Part shown: positions 17,596 to 63,029 of the stretch, piece after piece
Layout: each line of letters starts with the position of its first letter
Numbering within the stretch: the first letter of the stretch is position 1
Assembly: GCA_964583685.1 (NCBI GenBank)
Contig: CAZOVJ010000002.1
Span: 277,862-341,861 of the forward strand
Direction: 5' to 3'
DNA: 64,000 nucleotides
DNA from: an uncultured Gammaproteobacteria bacterium
Lineage (GTDB): Bacteria > Patescibacteriota > Microgenomatia > UBA8517
The notes under the pieces: generated by a model
The model's input: the letters and a program-made list of their open reading frames with translations, nothing else
Database searches by the model: none
Told to the model about the DNA's origin: nothing
Translations under genes and position numbers: made by a program

Positions 17596-18570
17596 ATGTC
17601 CTTTTTACAAAAAAAAGATTGGCAAAAAAAAGCTAAGAAATCTTCCACATCTTGGGGTAAAAAAGAGAGGTTGTTGGTTCTTCTCTTTTTTGGAGGAAGT
17701 GTGTTTTTGTCTGGGATTCTGGGGCTTTCTGCCAGGAAGTGGAAGTTGCCTGGTTTGCCCAGAATAACTCTGCCTAATTTTTCTTTTGAGAAAACCTTTA
17801 TTCTAGAAGGGGGTAGAAAAGACCTTCGGGAATTTGAGGAGATTAAGTCCAGGTTTAAAGAACAAACCAAAGACCTTTCCGGTGTTTATGGATTCTATGT
17901 TTTCAGCCTGATCGACTCATCTGAATACGGGCTTTATGAGGAAGAGATTTTTAGTGCAGCCTCGCTCATTAAACTTCCGGTCATGATTACCTTTTATAAA
18001 GAGGTGGAGATGGGTAACCTTGCTTTGGATACAGAATATTCTCTTAAGAGTGGGGACAAAAAAGCAGGTGCTGGTATTCTCTCAACCAAGGCGACTGGGA
18101 CGGTTTTCACTTATCGTCAATTAACACAATTTATGGGTCAATATTCGGACAATACAGCCTTTGGAGTTATTCGGGGAGTTTTGGGCGAGAGAAAGATTCA
18201 AGAGATGATTAATGGTTTGGGAATGAGACATACTTCTCTGGCTGAAAATGTTACTTCGCCGAAAGACATAGGAATTTTGTTTAAGAAACTTTGGCAAGGA
18301 AATATTCTTTCCGATAAAAGCAGAGATGAACTTTTGGATTTTTTAACAGAAACTGCTTATGAAGACCGGATTCCGGCTGGCCTTCCCTCGGATATTCGTG
18401 TTTCTCATAAAATCGGCACAGAAAGGGGAGCAATATCCGATGCCGGTATTGTTTTTACAGATAGCCCTTTTGTTTTGGTGCTGATGACAAAAGGAGCGAT
18501 TGAAAAAGAGGCAAGAGATATTTTCCCTAATCTAGCCAGGCTCATCTATGATTTTGAGATTGCTGATTAA
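17596..18570 (+). CDS. class A beta-lactamase-like serine hydrolase, membrane-anchored
   Basis: N-terminal TM; SAASLIK (SxxK), SDN and KIGT (KTG-like) motifs in the correct order. Confidence 0.5.
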   Translation: MSFLQKKDWQKKAKKSSTSWGKKERLLVLLFFGGSVFLSGILGLSARKWKLPGLPRITLPNFSFEKTFILEGGRKDLREFEEIKSRFKEQTKDLSGVYGFYVFSLIDSSEYGLYEEEIFSAASLIKLPVMITFYKEVEMGNLALDTEYSLKSGDKKAGAGILSTKATGTVFTYRQLTQFMGQYSDNTAFGVIRGVLGERKIQEMINGLGMRHTSLAENVTSPKDIGILFKKLWQGNILSDKSRDELLDFLTETAYEDRIPAGLPSDIRVSHKIGTERGAISDAGIVFTDSPFVLVLMTKGAIEKEARDIFPNLARLIYDFEIAD

Positions 18571-20807
18571 CGTTGAGTGCTGGCACCGGGTTCAAAAATT
18601 TGTCCCTCGAGGTTTTCTCCCTTTTCTTTAATTTGAGCAATTTGCTCAAAATTACAAGTTGCTTGAGGCTGATTCTCCTCCAAGAACCACTCTCTTCGAG
18701 TTGGACATCCTTGACAAGAGAGAGTTCCGGTTAATATACAAACTGGAATCTGGACCAGTCCAGCTGGAGCTTTCCAAGGTTGACTTTCTTCTTGGGCCAA
18801 AAGATGACTCATTATTTTATTGAAAATAGGGGCTGCTCCGGTGATGCCTGAGGCAACTCTGGCCATTGGGCTATTATCATTGTTTCCGACCCAAACAGCG
18901 ACCAGATATTTTTGATTGAAGCCAAGAGTGAAATTGTCGCGGAGATTATTGCTTGTTCCTGTTTTTACGGCCACCTCTGGGTGATTGGCTATGACTAGAC
19001 TGGAATTGCTTCCAAAGGCCGGTGTTCGGGCTGCATTGTCTCTGAGAATATCACTGAGCAAGAAAGCCACTCTTGAGTCAATTACTTGTTCTCCTTGGTG
19101 GGGAAGATTGATGGCTTCAAGGGTTTTCCCCTTGTAATTTTTAACTTGGAGGATGGTGGTAAGTTTGAGTCTTTCGCCATAATTGGCAATGGAGGCATAG
19201 ACTTGTGCCAAGTCAATTAGTTTTATTTCGCCGCCACCAAGAGTTAGAGAAAGGCCAAATCTTGCTGGTTCATTCCAGGTTGTTATTCCCATTTTTTGTC
19301 CTAGGTCAATCATTTTGCCTACTCCGTAGGAGGCCAAAACCTTGACAGCTGGAATATTTCTTGATTCAGCCAGTGCGCTTCTTAAAGGAATGGTTCCCCG
19401 ATAATTTCCATCATAGTTTCTCGGTGAATACACTGGCTGGCCTGGAACTGAGAAGCTAACCGGAGAATCAGAAATTAGGCTGGCTGGAGTAAATCCATGA
19501 GAGAGGGCATAGGCATAGTTGATAACTTTGATTGCTGAGCCTGGTTGTCTAAGACTGGTGGTTACATTGACCTTACCATCTATATCATTGGCAAAATAGT
19601 CTTTTGAGCCAACCATAGCCAGAATTTCTCCTGTTGACGGGTTGATAACTAGAACTGCTGCGTTGCTGACCCTGAGTTTTGTTAGTTTGCTTATTTCCTG
19701 GCTAACGATTTTTTCAGCCATTCTTTGGATTCCATAATCAAGAGTAGTAGTAATTTCGAGCCCGCCTTTTTCTAGGGTTTCCTCTCCATATTTTTCTGCT
19801 AGGATTTGTTTTATATACATTACGAAGTGGGGGGCTTTAATATCTATTTTGTTGCTGGCGAACTTTAATTCTTCTGTTTGAGCATTCTCGAACTGTTCTT
19901 TGTTGATGAAGTCATTAATGGACATGAGTTTTAAAACTTCTCTTTGTCGGCTAATGGTCAAGTTTGGCTGATGTCCAAAAGGAGAGAATTTACTTGGGCT
20001 TTTTGGTAAGCCGGCAAGTAGGGCTGCTTCGGCTAGGCTAAGTTTGTCCACATCTTTACCAAAATAAACATGGGCTGCTTCCTGAATTCCATAGGCTGTT
20101 CCTCCGTAAGAGACCTCGTTTAAATACATTTCCAGGATTTGGTCTTTTGTAAAAGCAGATTCAACCATAATAGCTAAAACTATCTCTCGCAGTTTTCTGA
20201 TAATTGTCTTTTCTGGGGAGAGAAGGGCATTTTTTACCAGTTGTTGGGTGATTGTTGAGCCACCAGATAACTGACCTCTGATTGCATTTTTGACTACTGC
20301 TCGGGCAATACCTTTAATAGAAAAACCCGGGTGTGCGTAGAACTCAGCATCTTCAGCCGCAATGGTTGCCAATCTTACCTGGAGAGGAATTTGCTTTAAG
20401 GGAACAAGAGTTCTATTTTGATTTTTGTAAATTTTGTAAAGCAGAGTTCCTTTCCTGTCGTAGATTTTTGTTGATACTTCTAGATTTCGGGTTATCAGTT
20501 CTTGGGGAGAGGGAAGTTTATAAAAAATTGCCAGCAGAAGAGTCAGGTAAAGGAAAGAGGGTATAAGGAAAATTAGAGTAAGTCCTCTTGGTTTAAGCCG
20601 TAAGAAAAGGGGAGCAAGTTTACGCTTGGAGGGTAGTTTAGCAAAAGCTCGGAACAATTGGAATAAATAGGTTATAAAAATTCGGGTAGAGTAGCCTATA
20701 AAATAGACAACTATCAAGATAGTTAAAAAAACATAGGAGAAGAGTATATAGAAGGGTTTGCCAATAAAAATTAATATCCTGGCCAAGAAGCTAGTGCCTG
20801 CCACCAC
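18567..20807 (-). CDS. class A penicillin-binding protein (PBP1A-type transglycosylase/transpeptidase)
   Basis: N-terminal TM; GT51 motifs (EDAEFYAHPG, RGQLSGGSTITQQL); transpeptidase motifs SAIK, SRN and KTGT. Confidence 0.85.
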   Translation of the reverse strand: MVAGTSFLARILIFIGKPFYILFSYVFLTILIVVYFIGYSTRIFITYLFQLFRAFAKLPSKRKLAPLFLRLKPRGLTLIFLIPSFLYLTLLLAIFYKLPSPQELITRNLEVSTKIYDRKGTLLYKIYKNQNRTLVPLKQIPLQVRLATIAAEDAEFYAHPGFSIKGIARAVVKNAIRGQLSGGSTITQQLVKNALLSPEKTIIRKLREIVLAIMVESAFTKDQILEMYLNEVSYGGTAYGIQEAAHVYFGKDVDKLSLAEAALLAGLPKSPSKFSPFGHQPNLTISRQREVLKLMSINDFINKEQFENAQTEELKFASNKIDIKAPHFVMYIKQILAEKYGEETLEKGGLEITTTLDYGIQRMAEKIVSQEISKLTKLRVSNAAVLVINPSTGEILAMVGSKDYFANDIDGKVNVTTSLRQPGSAIKVINYAYALSHGFTPASLISDSPVSFSVPGQPVYSPRNYDGNYRGTIPLRSALAESRNIPAVKVLASYGVGKMIDLGQKMGITTWNEPARFGLSLTLGGGEIKLIDLAQVYASIANYGERLKLTTILQVKNYKGKTLEAINLPHQGEQVIDSRVAFLLSDILRDNAARTPAFGSNSSLVIANHPEVAVKTGTSNNLRDNFTLGFNQKYLVAVWVGNNDNSPMARVASGITGAAPIFNKIMSHLLAQEESQPWKAPAGLVQIPVCILTGTLSCQGCPTRREWFLEENQPQATCNFEQIAQIKEKGENLEGQIFEPGASTQR

Positions 20808-20864
20808 CTATATTTTAGCAATTATGGGACTTTTTTGCTAGAGCAAAAATTCAGGACACACGCG

Positions 20865-23087
20865 TCAGTATCGGAGGGGATAATTTATGGTAACCGACTG
20901 ACTGGGGATAGGACAATCAAGACAGAATACAGCATTTAAAGGGTCATAAACTAGCGGATGATTTTGCATTTCAGTGTTTTCAGGGGCTGTCTTGGTGGTG
21001 GCCAGTTCACCAGTGGTCTTATCAATGAGAATGTCTTCTCTTTGACCATCAGGACCGCTTGGTAGATGATTTTCTAAAAAATACTCAAATCTTAAGGGAC
21101 ATTCGGGATTTTCCTCTGGCCCAGAAGGAAAGAGGCCGGAAGTCCAACAAACATTTTTACCAATGATTCCATCAGGCTTTCTTGGCCAGGCATGACCTTC
21201 ATCGTTTTCGTTATAGAAACCATCCTCGGCCTTATTCAAGGTCTCTCTTATTACCTTGTTCCAAATCGGTGAGGCACCAGAGATTCCGGAAACAGAACCG
21301 GTCATGGGTGTGTTATCGTTATTGCCAACCCAGGTAACAACCAAAACTTGGGCGGTGTAACCTATTGTCCAATTGTCTCGCCGGTCATTGGTCGTACCTG
21401 TTTTGACCGAGACTTCAGGGTGGCCGGCAACATTGAGATAGGAAGATCCCCCAAAGGCAGCGCTTCTGGAATTGTTGTCCAGGAGAATATGGGAAATAAG
21501 AAAGGTTATATCAGGAGTTAAAATCCGGTCTCCTTCCAGATCGTCAATTTTAATCTCTTCTAAAACTTTTCCTTTCCAGTCTTCAACCTTGAGAATAGCA
21601 GTAAGAGGCTGTTTTATTCCTTGATTGGCAAAAACTCCGAAGGCCACTGCCATATCATAAGGTCTGACTTCACCTCCACCTAGAGTCAGTGAGAGACCAT
21701 AATTAGAGGAATCAGTAAAGGTAGTGATACCCATCCTTTGGGCAAATTTTACAAAATTATCGATTCCATTTAAGGCAAGAACTTTTACTGCCGGTAGGTT
21801 ATATGAATTACCCAGAGCAAATCTGGCTTGAGGTGCACCATGAAATTGTCCATCATAATTCCTTGGGCAATAAAGAGGTTGCCCTGAAACAAGAAAGCAG
21901 GTCGGGACATCAATGAGTGTTGTCGAGGGCGTTATTTTTCCGTCTTTGAAAGCTAAAGCGTAATTTATGGGTTTGATTGATGAACCTGGCTGTCTTTTGG
22001 CAAAGATTACATTTACCTTTCCATCCTCATCTTGAGCAAAATAATCCTTGGAACCTATCATGGCTAAAATTTCTCCTGATGCTGGCCTGGTGACAAGTGC
22101 GGCTCCATTTTTAACATTAAAATTTTTAAGCTTGTCAAGTTCAGTCGTAACTGTGTTTTGAGAGAACTCCTGTAAATCTAAGTCCAAGGTTGTTGTTACC
22201 CGCAGCCCGCCTTGTTCAACCTTTTTTTCGCCGTATTTTTCGACCAGTTGCTCTTTGACCCATAAAACAAAATGGGGAGCACTTAGGGGTTGAATCTGAG
22301 CAAATTCGAGTTTTTCCTTTTTTACCTCATCTACTTGTTCTTGGTTAAGATGGCCTTCTTCAAGCATGCGACGTAAAACAGTTTCTTGGCGTCCTTTGGC
22401 CAGTTCTGGATGGGCCCCAAAAGGCGAATAGCGTGTTGGTGCTGCCGGCAGTCCGGCAAGAAGGGATGCTTCGGCCAAACTTAAGTCTTTTGCCGATTTG
22501 TTAAAATAAAGCTCACTAGCGGCCTCAATTCCATAGGCTGTTGAGCCATAAGGAATTTGATTGAAATACATTTCAAGAATTTGCTTTTTTGAATACAGGG
22601 CTTCAACAATCATCGTCAGGACAAATTCTCTGATTTTCCTTCTTATTGTCCGTTCAGGACTCAAAAGTGCATTTTTGACTAATTGTTGGGTGAGGGTAGA
22701 TCCACCCTGAAGTTTTTTCTTAAAAATTGTATTGAAACTGGCTCTGAGTATGCCGGTGAATGAAAAACCAGGGTGTTTGTAAAAATCTTTATCTTCTATG
22801 GCAATGGTTGCATTAATAAGATATTCAGGCAGTTCTTCTAATTTAATAGGGGTTCGTTTTTTTTCTGTATAAATTTCATAGATTAGCTTACCCTTTCTAT
22901 CATAAAGCTTACTGGATACGGGGAAGTTTTTAGAGCCAAGACGGGTTGGAAAGGGAATTCCCCAAAAAAAACAGAAAGCCCCGATAATGAGAAGTAAAAG
23001 AAATGAGCAAATAATAAATTTTCTTTTCTGTCTTTTTTTTATTTCTGTTGTGATATTTTTTTTCACCTCTTGAATTATACCTCGCAT
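20865..23087 (-). CDS. class A penicillin-binding protein (second PBP1A paralog)
   Basis: EDKDFYKHPG and QGGSTLTQQL GT51 motifs; SSIK, SYN and KTGT transpeptidase motifs; 740 aa. Confidence 0.85.
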   Translation of the reverse strand: MRGIIQEVKKNITTEIKKRQKRKFIICSFLLLLIIGAFCFFWGIPFPTRLGSKNFPVSSKLYDRKGKLIYEIYTEKKRTPIKLEELPEYLINATIAIEDKDFYKHPGFSFTGILRASFNTIFKKKLQGGSTLTQQLVKNALLSPERTIRRKIREFVLTMIVEALYSKKQILEMYFNQIPYGSTAYGIEAASELYFNKSAKDLSLAEASLLAGLPAAPTRYSPFGAHPELAKGRQETVLRRMLEEGHLNQEQVDEVKKEKLEFAQIQPLSAPHFVLWVKEQLVEKYGEKKVEQGGLRVTTTLDLDLQEFSQNTVTTELDKLKNFNVKNGAALVTRPASGEILAMIGSKDYFAQDEDGKVNVIFAKRQPGSSIKPINYALAFKDGKITPSTTLIDVPTCFLVSGQPLYCPRNYDGQFHGAPQARFALGNSYNLPAVKVLALNGIDNFVKFAQRMGITTFTDSSNYGLSLTLGGGEVRPYDMAVAFGVFANQGIKQPLTAILKVEDWKGKVLEEIKIDDLEGDRILTPDITFLISHILLDNNSRSAAFGGSSYLNVAGHPEVSVKTGTTNDRRDNWTIGYTAQVLVVTWVGNNDNTPMTGSVSGISGASPIWNKVIRETLNKAEDGFYNENDEGHAWPRKPDGIIGKNVCWTSGLFPSGPEENPECPLRFEYFLENHLPSGPDGQREDILIDKTTGELATTKTAPENTEMQNHPLVYDPLNAVFCLDCPIPSQSVTINYPLRY

Positions 23088-53468: not shown

Positions 53469-53789
53469 ATGGCAACGACCACAACAACAGATTCTGATTT
53501 TGAAAACAATGTGCTTAAATCAAAAATTCCCGTCTTGGTTGATTTTTGGGCACCATGGTGTGGCCCATGTATAACGGCCGAACCGGTCCTCGGAGAACTG
53601 AGCGAGACTTACCAGGGGAAAATTGAGGTGATGAAATTGAATGTTGATGAAAATCCCCAGACCGCGGTAAGATATAGAGTGATGTCAATTCCAACAACCA
53701 TTCTCTTTAAGGGAGGTCAAGAAATAGATAGACAAATTGGATTTGCCGGTAAAGTAGCATTTGAAATATTAATTAAGAAAGGATTATAA
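53469..53789 (+). CDS. trxA: thioredoxin
   Basis: WAPWCGPC active site. Confidence 0.85.
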   Translation: MATTTTTDSDFENNVLKSKIPVLVDFWAPWCGPCITAEPVLGELSETYQGKIEVMKLNVDENPQTAVRYRVMSIPTTILFKGGQEIDRQIGFAGKVAFEILIKKGL

Positions 53790-53806
53790 GAAGGGGGTGA
53801 TAGATT

Positions 53807-54085
53807 TTGAACCCAATTGATCAACCAGACCAGCCGACTCCTATAGGGGGTCCTGTTCAACCTGTAGGCGACACTCCGCCTGCTCAACCAAGTGAGGATA
53901 AGACACCACCTCCGCCTCCAGGTGGAATACCAGATACGCCAACACCAGAGCCAACACCAGGCCCGGTGACACCAGAACCGACACCAGAAACCCCACCTCC
54001 TGCCACTACTCCGGAACAACCGGCCGGTGGGCCAGTTGTTCCAAGTGAAGAAGAAAAGTCAGGAGAAATGCCTGGTAACGTCTAA
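53807..54085 (+). CDS. Pro/Thr/Glu-rich low-complexity small protein (TTG start)
   Basis: TPEPTPGPVTPEPTPETPPP repeats. SD AAGGGGGTGA (53791-53800) lies 6 nt before the TTG. It ends exactly at the trxB start. Confidence 0.3.
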   Translation: MNPIDQPDQPTPIGGPVQPVGDTPPAQPSEDKTPPPPPGGIPDTPTPEPTPGPVTPEPTPETPPPATTPEQPAGGPVVPSEEEKSGEMPGNV

Positions 54086-55035
54086 TGGCGAAACCCTGGG
54101 ATGTCATTATCATTGGTTCAGGCCCTGCCTCACTAACTGCGGCAATTTATACAAGCCGCAATGATGCTTCTACCTTAGTTCTTGGAGGAGAGAACTGGGG
54201 AGGCCAATTGATGTTGACCACGGCCGTTGATAATTTTCCTGGCTTTCCCAAAGGCGTTCAAGGCCCAGAGCTCATGAAGAAAATGAGAAAGCAGGTTGAA
54301 CGCTTCGGTGCTGAATTTATTGAAAAAGATGTTCAAGGTGTGAACTTTAATAAAACCCCCTTTGAGCTTTTTGTTGGAGGTTTAAAATATTCGGCCAAAA
54401 GTGTTATTATTGCCAGCGGTGCATCCTTCAAAAGACTGGCAGTTCCGGGAGAATCTGAGTTAATAGGTAGAGGAGTATCTTTTTGCGCCCTTTGTGACGC
54501 CCCTCTTTTTAAAGGGAAAAAAGTTGTTGTGGTCGGGGGAGGAGACAGCGCAGCCGAAGAGGCGTTGATTCTGAGCAAATATGCAAAAGAAGTACACATT
54601 ATTCATCGCCGAGATAAGTTAAGGGCTCAAGCGGCCATCCAGAAGAAAATATTTGCCAACAAAAAGCTCAAATTACTTTGGAATACTGAGGTTGAGCGGA
54701 TTGTCGGCGAAGAAAAGGTCGAAAAAATTATTCTCAGAAATAATCAAACAGGAAAGTCACAAGAGTTCATTGTAGATGGAGTTTTTATTGCCATTGGTCA
54801 TCAGCCAAAAAGTGACATTTTTAAGAATGCTCTTGAAACAGACGAGAAAGGATATATAAAGAGAATGACAATTGACAAACCGCAAATGCCAAATAGTTAT
54901 CAGATGGCAACCAGTATTCCCGGGGTTTTTGTGGCCGGAGATGTTCATGATTTTCACTATCGCCAAGCAATAACTGCAGCTGGTTTTGGTTGCATGGCGG
55001 CGATGGAAGTTATAAAGTGGCTGGATGAAAGATAA
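54085..55035 (+). CDS. trxB: thioredoxin-disulfide reductase
   Basis: IIGSGPASLTAAIY FAD motif, redox-active CALCDA, and VVGGGDSAAEEA NADPH motif. Confidence 0.85.
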   Translation: MAKPWDVIIIGSGPASLTAAIYTSRNDASTLVLGGENWGGQLMLTTAVDNFPGFPKGVQGPELMKKMRKQVERFGAEFIEKDVQGVNFNKTPFELFVGGLKYSAKSVIIASGASFKRLAVPGESELIGRGVSFCALCDAPLFKGKKVVVVGGGDSAAEEALILSKYAKEVHIIHRRDKLRAQAAIQKKIFANKKLKLLWNTEVERIVGEEKVEKIILRNNQTGKSQEFIVDGVFIAIGHQPKSDIFKNALETDEKGYIKRMTIDKPQMPNSYQMATSIPGVFVAGDVHDFHYRQAITAAGFGCMAAMEVIKWLDER

Positions 55036-55762
55036 TATTCTAGGAAGGCTTGTTCCTTTTCTTTTAGTGGCAACTGTCTGCTTGGCCTTTGCCGTTGGAA
55101 TTCTTTGGGAGAAGGTAAGGAAGCTTGAAAGTCCAACTGCTTCTCCTGTTCCCAAACCTCAAGTAGAGCAGGTTCTTGGTCAGGGCAAACTTGCTGATGA
55201 ATTGGCTGAGAAGATTACTCAGGTTAATGATCAGGACCATATTCAAGGTTCTCGAGACGCCAAAGTCTTTTTGATTGAATATTCAGACCCAGAGTGCCCC
55301 TATTGTAAAAAATTTCACCTAACAGCTCAGCAGCTTGTTGATGAATATAAAGGACAAGTGGCCTGGGTTTATCGGCATTTTCCCCTAGATATGCTTCATA
55401 CAAAAGCCAGGGCTGAAGCTGAGGCAATGGAGTGTGCAGGAGAACTGGGGGGCGAGGAGGCATTTTGGACCTTTAATGACAAACTTTACGAGATTACTCC
55501 TAGTAATAATGGCCTTGACTTGGATAAGCTTCCTCAGCTGGCCAGTCAGATAGGCCTTGATGTCGGTAAGTTTAAAGAATGTTTGGCGGCTAAAAGATAT
55601 AAGGATAAAGTTGAAGATAATTATCAGGGAGGGAGTGCGGCTGGAGTAACGGGTACCCCCGGTAACTTTGTTATTAATAGTCAGGGTGATGCCTGGTTTG
55701 TTCCCGGGGCCGTCTCTCTTGAGCTTCTTAAAAAGACAATAGACCAGGCACTTCAGGATTAA
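55025..55762 (+). CDS. DsbA-like thiol:disulfide oxidoreductase, membrane-anchored
   Basis: N-terminal TM and a CPYC active site (DPECPYCKKFH); 245 aa. Confidence 0.65.
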   Translation: MKDNILGRLVPFLLVATVCLAFAVGILWEKVRKLESPTASPVPKPQVEQVLGQGKLADELAEKITQVNDQDHIQGSRDAKVFLIEYSDPECPYCKKFHLTAQQLVDEYKGQVAWVYRHFPLDMLHTKARAEAEAMECAGELGGEEAFWTFNDKLYEITPSNNGLDLDKLPQLASQIGLDVGKFKECLAAKRYKDKVEDNYQGGSAAGVTGTPGNFVINSQGDAWFVPGAVSLELLKKTIDQALQD

Positions 55763-56654: not shown

Positions 56655-56893
56655 GCCATTCTGTAGCTATACTTCGCTATTCCATAGCTACGTAGTAGCG
56701 ACGGATAGCCTTGGCGAAAGATGGCTGCACATCGTGAATAACATTAGAACAATACTTCAAGAGACAACTGAGTATGTTTACATCCCCGATGTCTGCCCAC
56801 AACAAGTGTAATTATAAAGAATTTACCTCACTAAATTCTAGTATGCCGTTAACTTCTAGATGCAACCTAAAGCCTGCTTACATCTTATCCTTT

Positions 56894-59131
56894 TTAACTT
56901 GCAGAGAAAGGAGATTTACTATCCAATATCGCTCTCCTTATAGAAAGTGGCAGGTTGTAAGTCATATTAAAAGCCCAATACTCAAGTAATTTACCTTCTC
57001 CTCCAAATACAGGCACAGTGTCAACTATTTTTGACACATAGTAATCACCGAGAAGAAGAGACATATCGTTATAGTAAGAGAACATCTCTAGTGGAGCAAA
57101 GATATTCCCTATAACTCTCCATGGTGCTGAAACAGCCCCTAAAGCTCGACTGAAAAGTAACTTACTATCTCTATTCTTAACGATATGTGGCATTTCAGAA
57201 GCGAGTTGAGCTAAAACATAAGCCTCTCTTAGGATGCCTGAAGGAGATATTGGATTTAATGCCGCAACTCCTAAAGGAAGGAAATCGCTAGTTGATAAAC
57301 CATAAGCAGCTAACACCAGGTAGAGAGTTTTTGAGACTGCTTCTGTGCCAACCGTAAAACCTAAATCTCTAATAAACCCCTGCATTCTTTTTTCTCCGAC
57401 CTGTTTTATCAACTCTTCCGCTTGTTCTGGTGTAACAATGCCTCTTTCAAGTTGGGAACTGACTATATCACCAAGCCAATCTTCTCTATATTTTCTATCA
57501 ACGAATAAACGAGCTGGTTGAACTATTAGTTTTCGAACCAGTTCTGTGCGAGTCTCTGAGTCCGTTGCTAGCCGATGTAAACCCTTTGGTTGCCAACTTA
57601 GGAACAATTTATCGGCTAAATATCTTGGGGTAGAAACAGTAAGAGATGTTGCTCTTTCCGTGGTTATTCGTTGTTGACCTTCCCACCCAAGAAGATCGTT
57701 GTATTTACTAATATCAATTACTTCTCTTAAATAACCTGGTTTTCTTAAAATGTTATTCAAATGTTGTCTATATCTTTCATTTCCCAAAAGACGCATCAAC
57801 GGCTGTCCTACCATAGGTGTATTGTCCAGGATGAGGTAAGGTAAATATCTTTTCGACCCGTCTCTTAATTGTGTTGCTTCTGCCTCTGAGACCTTACCAA
57901 GCCTCTGCCAATCACCGATAGTTGCTTTCCTAACTTTTTCTTGAAGTTCCTTGTCTTTTAGAATTCGTGTTCTCATATGCCATAAATTAGGCAAGCCGCT
58001 TCTATACCTTTCATCATCCTCTTTCAGTCGTTGTATTAAACCATCGACAGAACTAAACGATTCTGTATGCGCTGCAAGATAAGAATCTAGTTTCTTAAAA
58101 TCTACCTCGTCAAAGTGAGCAAAAACGCCTCTTTTTAATCCATCAAATATAATTCTTGCATGAACGGGTGAAAGAGGAAGGAAAAAAGGAACAGCTAAAC
58201 CTGGCTGGCAATCAACTGCCGCAAATTCTGAAAGACCAGTTTTTTGATCATTTCTGGTTAAAACATTTGCTTGAGAAACGAGAGTATACCACTCGTATTG
58301 CCGAGCAAGTCCCAAAGCACCAATATCATGGCACACCCTTACTAGATCGTCCATAAAAACTCTCTTACGCCTCATTTCTGAATCAGGATGTTCTCTTGTT
58401 TTTCCTAACAACCTTAAAACCATTTTGTCATCAGCTTCGTATCGTGAACTCCTTCCGTTAACCCATTCGTGAACTCCAGCAAAACTTCCAACTTCGCTAT
58501 CCCAGTAATATCCAAATGGTTTTGCTACCGCAGAATCTGTTCCAAGTTCAATGTTTGTGGCTACCCGAAGAAGTTGCTGCCATATAAGCGCCGATCTTAA
58601 AGCCTCTTCTCTCAATCGAGGGGTAAAAGAAGCCTGATAGCTTAACTTAAAAAGTAAATCACGGAAAGCCTCTTTCCATTTGCTTTTTGGTCTTAGTACC
58701 TTGAGTGCGACAGGATTTTTGTCTCCATCTTCTTTAGAAGCATCATAGATTACGCCTTTCTCAGGCATTGCTCGGTAAACTTGACCAGCAAACCCACTTC
58801 CTGGACTTGTTTCTATGTTAAATCGCTCTATACCCAAGCCGTTACCATCTAAGGCACGAACATTTGCCTCAACATTTTCACCAATAAAATATCCATTTCT
58901 TTTCGGTTTGACTAAAATCTCACCTGATTTAATTCTATTATCAAGTTGGCGTCGAAAAGCAGTTGCTGAATCTTCTGGTGGTTGAGAGGTTGAAGAATAA
59001 ATTAGAACCTCATGAGAGGTAGTATTGAGTTGCACAGAGGGCGTGGCATCTTGTTCAAGTTGGGCAGGCAATTCTGATTGTGGAACTCCTCTTGGAATAA
59101 AACCAGGGGGGTTAATTGCCTCTTTTGACAT
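56894..59131 (-). CDS. atypical protein-kinase-like protein (ABC1/UbiB-like glycine loop and VAxK), 745 aa
   Basis: GSGFAGQVYRA (rc of 58769-58801) followed by PVALKVLRP (rc of 58688-58711), a DCQPG (DFG-like) motif, and a ~300-aa C-terminal extension with no match. The Gly-loop nucleotide coordinates were derived arithmetically from the ORF start and not re-read from the sequence. Apparent GC is higher than in neighbouring core genes. Confidence 0.5.
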   Translation of the reverse strand: MSKEAINPPGFIPRGVPQSELPAQLEQDATPSVQLNTTSHEVLIYSSTSQPPEDSATAFRRQLDNRIKSGEILVKPKRNGYFIGENVEANVRALDGNGLGIERFNIETSPGSGFAGQVYRAMPEKGVIYDASKEDGDKNPVALKVLRPKSKWKEAFRDLLFKLSYQASFTPRLREEALRSALIWQQLLRVATNIELGTDSAVAKPFGYYWDSEVGSFAGVHEWVNGRSSRYEADDKMVLRLLGKTREHPDSEMRRKRVFMDDLVRVCHDIGALGLARQYEWYTLVSQANVLTRNDQKTGLSEFAAVDCQPGLAVPFFLPLSPVHARIIFDGLKRGVFAHFDEVDFKKLDSYLAAHTESFSSVDGLIQRLKEDDERYRSGLPNLWHMRTRILKDKELQEKVRKATIGDWQRLGKVSEAEATQLRDGSKRYLPYLILDNTPMVGQPLMRLLGNERYRQHLNNILRKPGYLREVIDISKYNDLLGWEGQQRITTERATSLTVSTPRYLADKLFLSWQPKGLHRLATDSETRTELVRKLIVQPARLFVDRKYREDWLGDIVSSQLERGIVTPEQAEELIKQVGEKRMQGFIRDLGFTVGTEAVSKTLYLVLAAYGLSTSDFLPLGVAALNPISPSGILREAYVLAQLASEMPHIVKNRDSKLLFSRALGAVSAPWRVIGNIFAPLEMFSYYNDMSLLLGDYYVSKIVDTVPVFGGEGKLLEYWAFNMTYNLPLSIRRAILDSKSPFSAS

Positions 59132-59185
59132 GTTTAATTTTAATTTTCATTCTATGCTTTTAACAGTAAATAATAAAACTTCGGT

Positions 59186-59220
59186 AATTATACATCTTTT
59201 TGATCAGAAATTGTATAATT
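59186..59220. promoter_or_regulatory. 9-bp perfect inverted repeat AATTATACA-N17-TGTATAATT forming two divergent extended -10 (TGnTATAAT) elements
   Basis: Read from the sequence: 59186-59194 and 59212-59220. Each arm reads TGTATAAT on the strand of the gene it faces (the kinase-like gene leftward, HTH and PHP-ATPase rightward). Confidence 0.45.
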
Positions 59221-59230
59221 GTGTTGAGGT

Positions 59231-59422
59231 ATGCCGAAGATTAAAGACGAATTACCAAAACTCTTAACCATAAAACAAACAGCTGACATTCTAAATGTGC
59301 ATGTAGAGACTTTACGGAGATGGGGCAAAAGCGGAAAACTAAAAGCTATTAGAGTTAATAAACGGGGTGATAGGCGCTATGACCCCAGAGATATTGAAGC
59401 AATACTGAAAAACAAAAAATAA
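59231..59422 (+). CDS. excisionase/MerR-type helix-turn-helix DNA-binding protein
   Basis: 63 aa; LLTIKQTADILNVHVETLRRWGKSGKLKAIRV is typical of the excisionase-family HTH (AlpA/Xis-like). Its stop is 2 nt before the large ATPase gene. Confidence 0.7.
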   Translation: MPKIKDELPKLLTIKQTADILNVHVETLRRWGKSGKLKAIRVNKRGDRRYDPRDIEAILKNKK

Positions 59423-59424
59423 AT

Positions 59425-62289
59425 ATGAAATATCCAAAAGGTTCTGAATGGCGAAAGTGGGATCTACATATTCACAGCCCGCTTTCAATCCTAGCCAATA
59501 AATACCCTAAACTGCCAGACGGCAAGCCAGATTGGGAAAAATTCTTAAAAAGCCTTGAAGAGTTGGACATTGCAGTTGTTGGTATAACCGATTACTTCTC
59601 AATAGAAGGATATAAAAAAATCTTAGATTTCAAAAAGGCTGGTAGGTTAAAGAATATCGATCTTATTCTGCCCAATATCGAGTTTAGGTTAAACTGTGTC
59701 ATTGCAAGTAAAAAGGATGGAGCTAAACCAAGACGATTAAATTATCATGTGATCTTCTCGAATGAGGTGTCACCTCAGGACATCGAAGAACACTTTCTGC
59801 ATGACCTTCATTTTTACTATGAGGGCAATCCCCAAAGCAAAGATGAAAGTCGTAAGTTAAAACTTTCCAATTTGAAGGTATTAGGAAATCAACTTATATC
59901 TCAACATGCTCCTTTCAAAGGAAGAGACCCGTTGGAGTTAGGCGCATCAAATGCTGTTGTAAGCCATGAAGAAATAACGGAATTGTTGAGTGGGGATAGT
60001 CGCTTCAAAGGAAAATATCTCCTTGTCCTTCCAGAGGAACTAACAAACTTGATTGACTGGGATGGTCAAGACCATCTTATTCGGAAAGGGCTTCTCCAAA
60101 AATCAGATATGCTGTTTTCCTCTAATCCCAAAACTGTCCAATGGTGTCTTGGGAAACCGCCCTACATGGAAGGAGAGAGAAAATTCAAAAAGGAGTTTAA
60201 GACCTTGAAATCCTGTATCCACGGATCGGATAGCCACTGTATTGATGATGTTGGGATTCCATGTGCCAAAAGGGGTGACCCCAGTCATAAGTGCGACGGA
60301 AAGCCAAATACCTGCGATTTAAGATTCTGTTGGATAAAAGCTGACCCGACCTTTGAGGGACTAAAACAACTTTTGTATGAACCAGAGGAGAGAGTCTCAA
60401 TCCAAACTAATTGCCCAATACCTCCCAGAAGTAATTTAACGATTGTCAAAGTTAAAATTCCAGAGTCGAAAATCAACGATGAGCTGTCCATTGCTAACAC
60501 AGAAATAGAACTTAACCCAGGCTTGGTTGCCGTAGCAGGAGGTAAAGGAACTGGCAAAACCGCCTTCGTTGACCAGATTGCTAACTGTTACTTTAATCGA
60601 GTGGATTCTGGCGATGAGAATTCCTTTGTGAGGAGAATTTCAGATCAGAATCCTGACTTAAAAATCGAATTAACTTTCAAGGATAAATCAACTTTTTCAA
60701 AAAAAGCCACAGACCTATTACTTTTTGAAGAGGGGCAAATTGCTTATATCGCTCAGGGAGAACTAGAACAGTATATTGGAGAAAGGTCGGATCTTGACGA
60801 ATATCTTAATGACTTAATCTTCCAAAGTCCGAAAATACAAAATTCAGTAGAAAAATACGAATTTTCAAAGACTCAAACATCAATAGACGATCTCAGACAA
60901 AAAATTCAGAAGAAGTCAGAATCGATTGAGTTAATAGAGCAAGCAACTAAAACAGAAGCCATTGAAAAGGCAAAAATTAAAGAAAAACAGTCCAAAGCAG
61001 AATTGGAAGATATAACCCAAAGAATCACAGAGCTTGAAAAGAGGCTTAGTGATAAAAAGGTCAAGCTCGCAAAGAAAAAACAAAAAGCAATAGCGAGATT
61101 AAAAAACAGAAGAGACTTGTTTATTAAATTAAAAAAGGAATTAACGCAGGCAATCGACTTCATTGATCAAGAATTTCCAAACTTTAACTCTTACATCTCC
61201 TCTATCAACAAACTGCTCAAAAAGTTAGAAATTCCAGAACCATTTCCCGATTTAGCGTATCCTGACAAGGATAAGTTGCAAGAAAAATTAGATTATATTG
61301 AGCAGGAAATAAACGAGGTAATTAAAAAGATCGGGAAAGCCCAAAAGGACATCGATAAGTTTGAAGCAGGCATACGAACCCACACATCAATGCTTGATAA
61401 AAAGAGAGAGGCTAAAATCACTCTAAATCAAGCTAAGGAGGAAAATAAAAAATTAAAGAAGAAGAAAAAAGAGCTTGCGTCTAAAAGCAAAGAAAGGAAA
61501 AAGTTATTTACCCAGATGGTTACTGCCTTCCTTGAACTGAAGAAAAAGTATGACGAGATTATCTCGCTATTTTCTGTAGACAAGGCACAAGTTCTATCTG
61601 ATCTCGATTTCGTCGCAGAGGTTAATTTTGATTCAAAACAACTACTCAAAAACGCAGAGGACATTGTTGACAACAGGAGAGTTACAGTCAGACCAGAAGA
61701 TGGCGATGACTGGGTATTCAAGGGCTTAGTCGGACTTTATAAGGAAGTTGCAGCTGGCGACGAAACCAAAATTAAAACTTTAACTGACGAGATAGAGCGT
61801 TTGAATAAGGACTTGAAGGATAAGATAAAAACTTCAAGCGCTATAAGTATTGGCGATTTTTATAAATTCCTATACGGCAGCTACCTGGAAGTCATCCCTG
61901 TTGTCAAATACAAGAATACCAGCGTCAATAAGCTCTCGCTGGGGCAAAAAGCGACAGTCCTTATCAAGATTTATTTAGCTGAGGGGGACAAACCTATTAT
62001 CATCGACTCGCATGACGACCATCTTGATAATGAATTCATCATGGACGAGCTTATTTGTTCTATAAGAGAAGCTAAAAAGTATCGACAGATTATCTTAGTA
62101 TCCAATAACGGCAATGTTGTTATAAATAGTGATGCAGAACAGGTCATTTTGGCAAACAGGGACAGCAATGGAAAAATCTCGTATATCTCTGGTTCAATAG
62201 AAGAGCCAAAGATTAGAAATAGAGCGGTTAAGGTATTAGAGGGCGGATCAGAAGCATTTAGGAAACGGCAACAAAAATACAGAATATGA
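59425..62289 (+). CDS. PHP-domain phosphoesterase fused to a Rad50/SbcC-like coiled-coil ABC ATPase (candidate defence/DNA-surveillance protein)
   Basis: PHP motifs WDLHIHS (59461-59478), GITDYF and HGSDSH (approx. 60220-60240); Walker A GGKGTGKT (60538-60561); a ~320-aa Lys/Glu-rich heptad coiled coil; ABC signature LSLGQKA (61933-61953); Walker B/D-loop PIIIDSHDDHLD (61993-62028). 954 aa. Confidence 0.6.
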   Translation: MKYPKGSEWRKWDLHIHSPLSILANKYPKLPDGKPDWEKFLKSLEELDIAVVGITDYFSIEGYKKILDFKKAGRLKNIDLILPNIEFRLNCVIASKKDGAKPRRLNYHVIFSNEVSPQDIEEHFLHDLHFYYEGNPQSKDESRKLKLSNLKVLGNQLISQHAPFKGRDPLELGASNAVVSHEEITELLSGDSRFKGKYLLVLPEELTNLIDWDGQDHLIRKGLLQKSDMLFSSNPKTVQWCLGKPPYMEGERKFKKEFKTLKSCIHGSDSHCIDDVGIPCAKRGDPSHKCDGKPNTCDLRFCWIKADPTFEGLKQLLYEPEERVSIQTNCPIPPRSNLTIVKVKIPESKINDELSIANTEIELNPGLVAVAGGKGTGKTAFVDQIANCYFNRVDSGDENSFVRRISDQNPDLKIELTFKDKSTFSKKATDLLLFEEGQIAYIAQGELEQYIGERSDLDEYLNDLIFQSPKIQNSVEKYEFSKTQTSIDDLRQKIQKKSESIELIEQATKTEAIEKAKIKEKQSKAELEDITQRITELEKRLSDKKVKLAKKKQKAIARLKNRRDLFIKLKKELTQAIDFIDQEFPNFNSYISSINKLLKKLEIPEPFPDLAYPDKDKLQEKLDYIEQEINEVIKKIGKAQKDIDKFEAGIRTHTSMLDKKREAKITLNQAKEENKKLKKKKKELASKSKERKKLFTQMVTAFLELKKKYDEIISLFSVDKAQVLSDLDFVAEVNFDSKQLLKNAEDIVDNRRVTVRPEDGDDWVFKGLVGLYKEVAAGDETKIKTLTDEIERLNKDLKDKIKTSSAISIGDFYKFLYGSYLEVIPVVKYKNTSVNKLSLGQKATVLIKIYLAEGDKPIIIDSHDDHLDNEFIMDELICSIREAKKYRQIILVSNNGNVVINSDAEQVILANRDSNGKISYISGSIEEPKIRNRAVKVLEGGSEAFRKRQQKYRI

Positions 62290-62432: not shown

Positions 62433-63029
62433 TTATTTCACCTGGGCAAACTCTCTTCCATCAGGAGTAACACACTTTCTTGGTTCACCAGTTCTTTGAG
62501 AATACTGCTCTGATGAGAGCTGCCCTCTGGCTTCAACACAATCCTCATATGTTTCTACCCATTTGAATCTGTCATTTATTGAAGGGGCAAGATCGCCTCC
62601 AGGAAGAAGTTCTGGGTAGAACATGCCTGGGCAACCATGACTGCAATCATCAAACTTGCCTTCGTTCAGTAAAACTTCAGCCAACTCCCAAGCACTCATT
62701 GTTTGAGAAATCTCATAAGTAGTTTGAGTATTGATGGTGTTGTTGCTAATGCTAATTGCTCCCTCTTGCCCAGGGGTGGCATCTTCGGCATGCCCCAGGG
62801 CATATTTGAAGGCATCCTCGTCTTTGATAAAGCCATAGTAGCGAAGATTGCTGACAACACCCATTAAAGTAGCTTCTTTGCCGATGCGGAATTGAACCAC
62901 TTGGGCATTTTGTCTTGGTGCTTCAAACTTGCTTTGACGAGACTTGGTGAAATAAACGGCAATGCTTGCCAGCAAGACAAGAGCAACAACAATTAGTGGG
63001 ATAGTTGGTAGTTTTTTCTTCATGTTCAT
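62433..63029 (-). CDS. hypothetical secreted/membrane-anchored Cys-containing protein
   Basis: N-terminal signal/TM (LPTIPLIVVALVLLASIAVYF), a CSHGCPG motif, and a strong SD AAAGGAGGTGA upstream; 198 aa. Confidence 0.4.
   Translation of the reverse strand: MNMKKKLPTIPLIVVALVLLASIAVYFTKSRQSKFEAPRQNAQVVQFRIGKEATLMGVVSNLRYYGFIKDEDAFKYALGHAEDATPGQEGAISISNNTINTQTTYEISQTMSAWELAEVLLNEGKFDDCSHGCPGMFYPELLPGGDLAPSINDRFKWVETYEDCVEARGQLSSEQYSQRTGEPRKCVTPDGREFAQVK

Follow-up and report, generated by a model that had tools for sequence, protein, structure and literature searches.

A gene whose product carries the ATP-binding motifs of a kinase and matches no kinase family by sequence raises the question of what that product is and what it might do. 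Such a gene occupies positions 56894–59131, on the minus strand, of a 64,000-nucleotide stretch of contig CAZOVJ010000002.1 (GenBank assembly GCA_964583685.1; this whole stretch is hereafter the window). The open reading frame (ORF) is complete, begins with ATG, encodes 745 amino acids and belongs to a family that has no name. A preliminary description drawn from the sequence had read the protein as an atypical kinase of the UbiB/ABC1 type, possibly serving in a defence module, and the ORF and the motifs it quoted are indeed present: GSGFAGQVYRA at residues 111–121, PVALKVLRP at residues 140–148 (19 residues past A121) and DCQPG at residues 307–311. The reading that we prefer, with moderate confidence, is that the protein represents a new and deeply divergent protein-kinase-like (PKL) family in which a kinase-like domain is joined to a helical, membrane-type module, and which would act as an ATP-dependent enzyme of the envelope or its lipids.

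A kinase-like fold in a rare and unnamed family

A Pfam scan of the protein returned no match at E ≤ 1, with the ABC1, Pkinase, RIO and Kdo families included; scans against NCBIfam and PHROGs gave nothing relevant, and no PADLOC family matched at E ≤ 1. Searches of all PDB sequences with the protein itself (phmmer), or with a profile built from 40 family sequences (hmmsearch), likewise gave nothing significant; a match to a MurJ chimera (E = 0.37) fell mostly on its cytochrome b562 fusion partner and was discarded. Relatives could nevertheless be found. A word-indexed search recovered 233, and the 120 that were listed are all either without a name or labelled hypothetical, with no Pfam domain on any of them or on 10 distant family members. 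An exhaustive hidden Markov model (HMM) search of 1.84 billion protein cluster representatives (clustered at 50% identity) identified 581 members at E ≤ 1e-3, of which 203 reach E ≤ 1e-30, and the GTDB species-genome collection contains at least 524 stretches encoding a relative. Nearly all of the 80 such stretches that we retrieved are metagenome-assembled genomes. Members occur in Planctomycetota, Desulfobacterota, Acidobacteriota/Aminicenantes, Cloacimonadota, KSB1, Fibrobacterota, Armatimonadota, Kiritimatiellia, Hydrogenedentota and Chloroflexota, and the closest named relative among the matches listed, at 51% identity, comes from a Candidatus Microgenomates bacterium. A literature search on the family motifs found no papers. 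The family is thus rare, unnamed and previously undescribed.

Using AlphaFold2 with the family alignment, we obtained a full-length model with a mean predicted local distance difference test (pLDDT) score of 85.1 and a predicted TM-score (pTM) of 0.83, in which residues ~86–340 (58112–58876; all features of the protein lie on the minus strand) start with a beta-rich lobe and continue with helices and a hairpin of the beta7/beta8 type, giving an N-lobe and a reduced C-lobe. When the full model was compared with the PDB using Foldseek, protein kinases made up 49 of the top 50 matches (E from 2e-3 to 1.5e-2, probability mostly 0.9–1.0), among them CK2, BubR1, YabT, GSK3, PknA, VRK2 and TTK. A model of residues 52–350 alone (pLDDT 81) gave 80 PDB matches at E ≤ 1e-3; its top 50 were all of the kinase fold, with probabilities of 0.99–1.0, and included the kinase domain of the ThurKC lanthipeptide synthetase and the TYK2 pseudokinase. 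In a library of viral structures, giant-virus protein kinases ranked best and one ABC1 protein appeared at rank 15, and no phage protein scored better than E ~0.7. With kinases dominating the matches in two libraries, the bilobal kinase reading of the preliminary description is borne out, and the models support a very divergent protein-kinase-like fold for this domain. The tail that precedes it (residues 1–51; 58979–59131) has a pLDDT below 50, is common in the alignment only to the closest relatives and is probably disordered.

The fold is accompanied by near-invariance of the residues expected at an ATP-binding site, which we tallied over 150 full-length homologues (denominators vary by column). 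In the glycine-rich loop (residues 111–121; 58769–58801), which was placed by homologue conservation and profile alignment, G111 is present in 144/148 and G113 in 146/148 homologues. The beta-3 strand (58688–58714; residues 141–145 form the strand in the model) carries the putative ATP-binding K144, found in 146 of 149 homologues and replaced by arginine in the remainder. The equivalent of the catalytic loop, SQANVL (residues 286–291; 58259–58276), contains N289 (149/150), by position the metal-binding asparagine, together with S286 (137/148) and Q287 (133/148), and the DFG equivalent, DCQPG (58199–58213), contains D307 (148/150), by position the metal-binding aspartate, and G311 (149/150). 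Because these residues are near-invariant across the homologues, the motifs are not chance matches. In the model N289 directly precedes a strand (290–293) and D307 directly follows the next one (303–305). In PKA the canonical arrangement is an asparagine before beta7 and the DFG motif after beta8, and the predicted placement of N289 and D307 matches that order as in kinases. The protein therefore displays the hallmarks of a Hanks-type kinase, namely a Gly-rich loop, the VAIK lysine, the catalytic-loop asparagine and the DFG aspartate, in canonical order.

One hallmark is missing. Position 284, five residues before N289, is the site of the catalytic aspartate in HRD/HxD kinases; it is leucine in our protein and most commonly Leu, Cys, Phe or Met in the family (130/150), and no Asp occurs there among the residues tallied in the 150 homologues. 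Neither an APE motif nor an activation segment follows D307. As judged from the alignment, the putative ATP- and metal-binding residues are under strong selection and the classical catalytic base is missing. We propose that the kinase-like domain would lie in the cytoplasm and bind nucleotide and Mg through the Gly loop, Lys144, Asn289 and Asp307, with no canonical catalytic Asp.

Relationship to UbiB/ABC1 proteins and Hanks-type kinases

Might the protein be a true, if very divergent, member of the UbiB/ABC1/ADCK family that acts on isoprenoid quinone precursors, as its motifs had first suggested? The local likeness is real: GFAGQVYRA...VALKVLRP in our protein runs parallel to aSiaQVH.A...VvvKV.RP in ABC1 proteins, VAxKVxRP surrounds the beta-3 lysine, and there is an Asp of the DFG type. 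However, the ABC1 family model (PF03109) matches neither the protein, nor the 120 listed homologues, nor the 10 distant members, and the Pkinase, RIO and Kdo models also failed to match the protein. UbiB proteins are defined by an N-terminal KxGQ extension, described in the ADCK3 structure literature, and an HxDxHPGN catalytic loop. The former is missing from the family consensus before the Gly loop, where the model has one helix (residues 55–69) and a strand, and in place of the latter our protein has YTLVSQAN.

We quantified these relationships by profile–profile comparison with hhalign, using an ABC1 alignment of 13 sequences (E. coli UbiB together with AarF/UbiB genes from plasmids) and a control alignment of 10 Hanks kinase domains from annotated plasmid genes. 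The family's N-domain profile matched the ABC1 alignment with a probability of 43% over 44 columns, and the full-length family alignment matched it with 17% over 74 columns; both alignments are confined to the Gly/Ala-rich loop plus strand beta-3 and leave the YTLVSQAN region unaligned. Against the Hanks kinases, the N-domain profile reached 62% over 39 columns, all within the N-lobe. In the control comparison, ABC1 and Hanks kinases matched each other at 98.8% over 145 columns, with the catalytic loop and DFG included. The Gly loop of our protein aligns with both the Hanks Gly loop and the ABC1 Ala-rich loop, and comparisons with single sequences were uninformative (E. coli UbiB 2%, SrkA 0.1%). 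Given 43% for ABC1 against 62% for Hanks kinases and 98.8% between those two, the family has no special affinity to ABC1, and by this measure it lies much farther from both UbiB and Hanks kinases than those two groups lie from one another.

Lacking a PF03109 match, the KxGQ and HxDxHPGN motifs and any profile preference, the protein is not an ABC1 member by our analysis, and we consider a quinone-directed UbiB role very improbable. The ABC1 protein in the viral fold search and the membrane link that the family shares with UbiB speak for such a role; against it, the top 50 PDB matches in Foldseek include no ADCK3/COQ8 structure, and the 25 families found most often beside homologues include no Ubi or Men family. 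The kinase reading of the preliminary description thus holds for the fold and the conserved putative ATP and metal residues, but not for the UbiB/ABC1 assignment. As a functional analogy UbiB remains reasonable, and indeed the best: like UbiB/COQ8, the protein would be an atypical, membrane-associated PKL protein with an xxGQV(Y/H)xA ... VAxKVxRP front and an extra helix past beta-3, plausibly a lipid-acting ATPase and probably not a protein kinase. It differs from UbiB in that its loop is rich in Gly, not Ala, in that no quinone-pathway family ranks among the 25 commonest neighbours of homologues, and in failing the family HMM.

The same comparisons bear on another reading, that of a Hanks-type Ser/Thr protein kinase that works in signalling and has a membrane domain for sensing or anchoring. 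Its top structural matches are eukaryote-like protein kinases (TTK/Mps1, GSK3, CK2, BubR1 and the bacterial PknA and YabT), with a bilobal signal at probabilities of 0.99–1.0, and its best profile match, still weak, is the Hanks alignment. Unlike these kinases, however, it has no HRD Asp, activation segment, APE motif or recognisable alphaF–alphaI core; it is fused to a unique 400-residue helical module, gives no Pkinase (PF00069) or other Pfam match, and reaches TM-scores of only 0.25–0.43. Moreover, only 39 N-lobe columns align, and the 25 commonest neighbour families of homologues include neither FHA nor PP2C. We therefore regard a signalling protein kinase as improbable. A kinase alignment confined to the N-lobe, without an activation segment or APE, is as seen in small-molecule kinases and supports a reading of that sort.

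The C-terminal module, homologue neighbourhoods and a proposed function

The remainder of the protein is a region without any known family, as had been noted before, although it is larger than the ~300 residues then proposed, at ~400 (345–745). Residues 345–739 (56915–58099) form an all-helical module that is packed confidently on the kinase-like domain, and the pTM of 0.83 indicates that the two form one body. The module has no Pfam match and no PDB sequence match. It is conserved in the family, with near-invariant residues in two motifs, the first of which, PISPSG..R (P627 in 144/148 homologues, P630, and R635 in 147/147), lies in a hydrophobic helical hairpin (residues 589–656; 57164–57367). 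The second is VPVFGGEGKLLEYW (residues 706–719; 56975–57016), with the family form VPVFGGxGxLLE, in which P707 and G710 are each found in 146/147 and E717 in 140/146 homologues.

Alignment-wide hydropathy reveals conserved hydrophobic segments at residues ~422–449, ~589–656 and ~663–710. In a distant clade these segments, the hairpin included, are of transmembrane (TM) grade, with a 19-residue mean Kyte–Doolittle (KD) hydropathy of up to 1.9 (2.4 in single proteins), and many distant members have further C-terminal TM helices; one member of 1216 residues has additional hydrophobic segments and a weak, sub-threshold match to GDSL lipases. From these profiles the module is likely to be membrane-embedded in the family generally, with embedding uncertain for our protein itself. 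A sister group of five proteins (P0173, P0176, P0181, P0201 and P0249; 440–530 residues) keeps the C-terminal hydrophobic module, the second motif included, along with some of the N-domain scaffold. It has no middle helical region and has lost the Gly loop; N289 is arginine in 5/5, and the DFG-type Asp is gone in P0176. Since the module is kept while the kinase motifs decay, it is the constant core of the family.

That finding also lends weight to the main rival of our preferred reading, in which the domain would be a non-catalytic pseudokinase, a nucleotide-gated switch or scaffold regulating the membrane module as the effector (a transporter or an assembly factor, for instance). In favour of this, there is no canonical catalytic Asp, position 284 being mostly Leu, Cys, Phe or Met; the motifs of the C-terminal module match the ATP-site residues in invariance; and the sister proteins, having lost the Gly loop and Asn289 (and Asp307 once), keep the module nonetheless, so an intact site is not required for the module to function. 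On the other hand, a near-invariant N289, D307, Lys144 and Gly loop are more typical of enzymes that turn over ATP than of proteins that only bind it, and PKL enzymes without the classical Asp exist, SelO being an AMPylase that is active without it. We judge a pseudokinase to be a possible but unlikely explanation. The retention of Lys, Asn and DFG-Asp in Asp-less PKL enzymes and pseudokinases such as SelO would by analogy suggest non-canonical chemistry, though SelO is soluble and differs in domain organisation, and our comparisons turned up no link to such proteins in sequence or structure. A second analogy is provided by mycobacterial MviN/MurJ, a membrane protein fused to a pseudokinase domain. 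It resembles our protein in combining a cytoplasmic kinase-like domain with a membrane module and in an envelope-related role, which for our protein is proposed, but neither its domain order nor its membrane module is related to ours.

Clues to the substrate come from the neighbourhoods of homologues. The contexts of individual homologues vary widely, but some neighbours recur. A gene for PgpA (PF04608) lies within three genes of the family gene in 16/73 loci, and in 13 loci from Phycisphaerae and Pirellulales, all Planctomycetota, pgpA is directly upstream on the same strand with a gap of −1 to 186 nt (L011, L027, L030, L032, L038, L040, L063, L070, L076, L077, L080, L083 and L084). In most of these 13 an unannotated protein of ~250 residues is encoded downstream, making a conserved three-gene arrangement. 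Pfam counts over 100 neighbours gave PgpA 9 times, Polysacc_deac_2 5 times, holA 4 times, and CdsA-type CTP_transf_1, mannose-1-phosphate guanylyltransferase and PMM/PGM twice each. Polysacc_deac_2 is directly upstream of the family gene in Armatimonadota and Cloacimonadota, and the relatives 63–65% identical to our protein lie inside same-strand operons, with 4-nt gaps or overlaps, that contain three GT2 and up to three PMT_2 (GT-C) glycosyltransferase genes; at a further locus (L100) a GT2 gene lies 4 nt upstream. Defence, FHA, PP2C and quinone genes are all absent from the 25 most frequent neighbour families. The recurrence of PgpA, CdsA, glycosyltransferase and deacetylase neighbours gives a weak but consistent indication of a role in membrane-lipid or envelope-glycan metabolism.

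Two Chloroflexota-like loci (L113 and L114) have a polytopic membrane protein abutting the start codon of the family gene. We also looked for a hidden upstream partner in the clade of our protein and rejected the idea, as the upstream unknowns are mostly unrelated and only those of L104 and L113 match each other. On these last two contigs, also Chloroflexota-like, genes for a GPP34 protein (Golgi phosphoprotein 3, PF05719; L104:8166–8816 and L113:7160–7810) run convergently into the family gene, overlapping its 3′ end by 4 nt.

The mechanism that we favour is as follows. The kinase-like domain, fused to and packed on a helical module of ~400 residues that would be embedded in the membrane in most lineages and probably associated with it here, may form an ATP-dependent enzyme, either a small-molecule or lipid kinase or an ATPase, that works at the membrane on phospholipids or lipid-linked envelope glycan intermediates. 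A more specific version, which we put forward tentatively and consider rather unlikely as it stands, is an ATP-driven lipid machine in which an Asp-less kinase-like ATPase and its membrane module phosphorylate, extract or flip a phospholipid or a polyprenyl-phosphate-linked envelope intermediate.

Several observations weigh against the enzyme that we prefer. TM-scores to kinases are low (0.25–0.43 in Foldseek with both models) with high rmsd, and no sequence profile is significant against any kinase family. With no acidic residue at the position of the catalytic base, phosphotransfer is at best putative. The hydrophobic segments of our protein fall below the threshold for TM helices, with a KD hydropathy of about −0.1 for the first and 1.1–1.4 for the others. 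Finally, the neighbourhood signal is lineage-restricted, with PgpA found in Planctomycetota only, and absent from the window.

The window around the gene and the meaning of the family

In the window, divergent from our gene across a 99-nt spacer (59132–59230), lies a gene (59231–59422) for a 63-residue HTH_17/MerR-type protein that matches the PADLOC mad1 model (E = 8e-12), and 3 nt past this gene begins one for a 954-residue PHP/AAA ATPase of the TrlF family (NF045780, 508 bits, above the cutoff), with a weaker Ppl-like C-terminus. The HTH–TrlF pair (59231–62289, plus strand) resembles a defence-type insertion and is missing from all 101 homologue loci; a literature search on TrlF returned spectroscopy papers only. 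The inverted repeat that had been described in the spacer is there, but the gene paired divergently with ours is the HTH gene, with the PHP/TrlF ATPase only after it. The repeat is a 35-nt near-palindrome at 59186–59220, AATTATACA-N17-TGTATAATT or, in full, AATTATACA tcttt TTGATCAG aaat TGTATAATT, whose arms form a perfect 9-bp inverted repeat (59186–59194 and 59212–59220) that is equalled in 4% of spacer shuffles. Each strand carries one TGTATAAT box of extended −10-like type, and the two boxes flank a TGATCA core; this layout is compatible with divergent promoters and/or an operator for the adjacent HTH protein.

Downstream, the gene is separated from a GIY-YIG nuclease gene by 239 nt (56655–56893) that contain a TATAAT-like box and no terminator-like site; an operon with this nuclease gene and the neighbouring SpoU-type methyltransferase gene is only a possibility, and their arrangement is not conserved in the 101 homologue loci. 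The 239-nt spacer matches no Rfam family. A GC-richer stretch within it, with repeated GCTAT/ATAGC words (gctatccgtcgctactacgtagctatggaatagcgaagtatagc), could fold.

This setting had prompted the idea of a signalling or effector kinase in an anti-phage module made up with the HTH–TrlF pair and the GIY-YIG nuclease. Its appeal lies in the mad1-like HTH and TrlF/Ppl-like pair only 99 nt away and in the palindromic element in the common spacer. The protein itself has no PADLOC match, however, and when we searched the 101 homologue-bearing loci (with 5–8 kb flanks) by tblastn with six window neighbours (GIY-YIG, SpoU, HTH, TrlF, TrxB and DsbA-like), we obtained no match in any. There is also no meaningful phage structural match (best E ~0.7), and family genes sit in ordinary chromosomal surroundings, in at least 524 genome stretches. 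The non-conserved neighbourhood refutes defence as a conserved system, and we consider a defence kinase extremely improbable. Under our proposal the gene would stand alone, its placement beside HTH–TrlF, GIY-YIG and SpoU being incidental.

The remaining window is ordinary chromosome, with genes for FeoB, RNR, FtsH, an ATP-dependent DNA ligase, a P-type ATPase and two class A penicillin-binding proteins (PBPs). The latter are tandem genes (18567–23087, minus strand, in otherwise plus-strand surroundings) for proteins of 746 and 740 residues with Transgly and Transpeptidase domains, and were rejected as paralogues of our protein on these grounds. By sequence inspection, a redox cluster at 53469–55762 (plus strand) comprises a thioredoxin-like ORF (WCGPC), a thioredoxin-reductase-like ORF, a 92-residue proline-rich ORF (53807–54085) and a membrane-anchored DsbA-like protein (CPYC). 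Just beyond an ORF of 198 residues (62433–63029) there is a LOOT RNA (Rfam RF03000; 63146–63256, minus strand) that scores 75 bits against a gathering score of 46 and matches the full length of the model.

Although the PKL superfamily has been thoroughly catalogued, this family has no relative by sequence in Pfam, NCBIfam or the PDB, and it spans many phyla in which almost all members come from uncultured lineages. For annotation, the family should be labelled neither UbiB nor a defence kinase. If the lipid-machine proposal is true, it would be a counterpart of UbiB/COQ8 for lipids other than quinones, widespread in uncultured anaerobes, Planctomycetota and bacteria of the Candidate Phyla Radiation (CPR). 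If active, the family would establish a new chemistry, or a new class of substrates, among kinase-like enzymes of the bacterial envelope. A conserved protein now labelled hypothetical would then gain a function in lineages such as CPR bacteria and Planctomycetota, in which envelope biogenesis is poorly understood.

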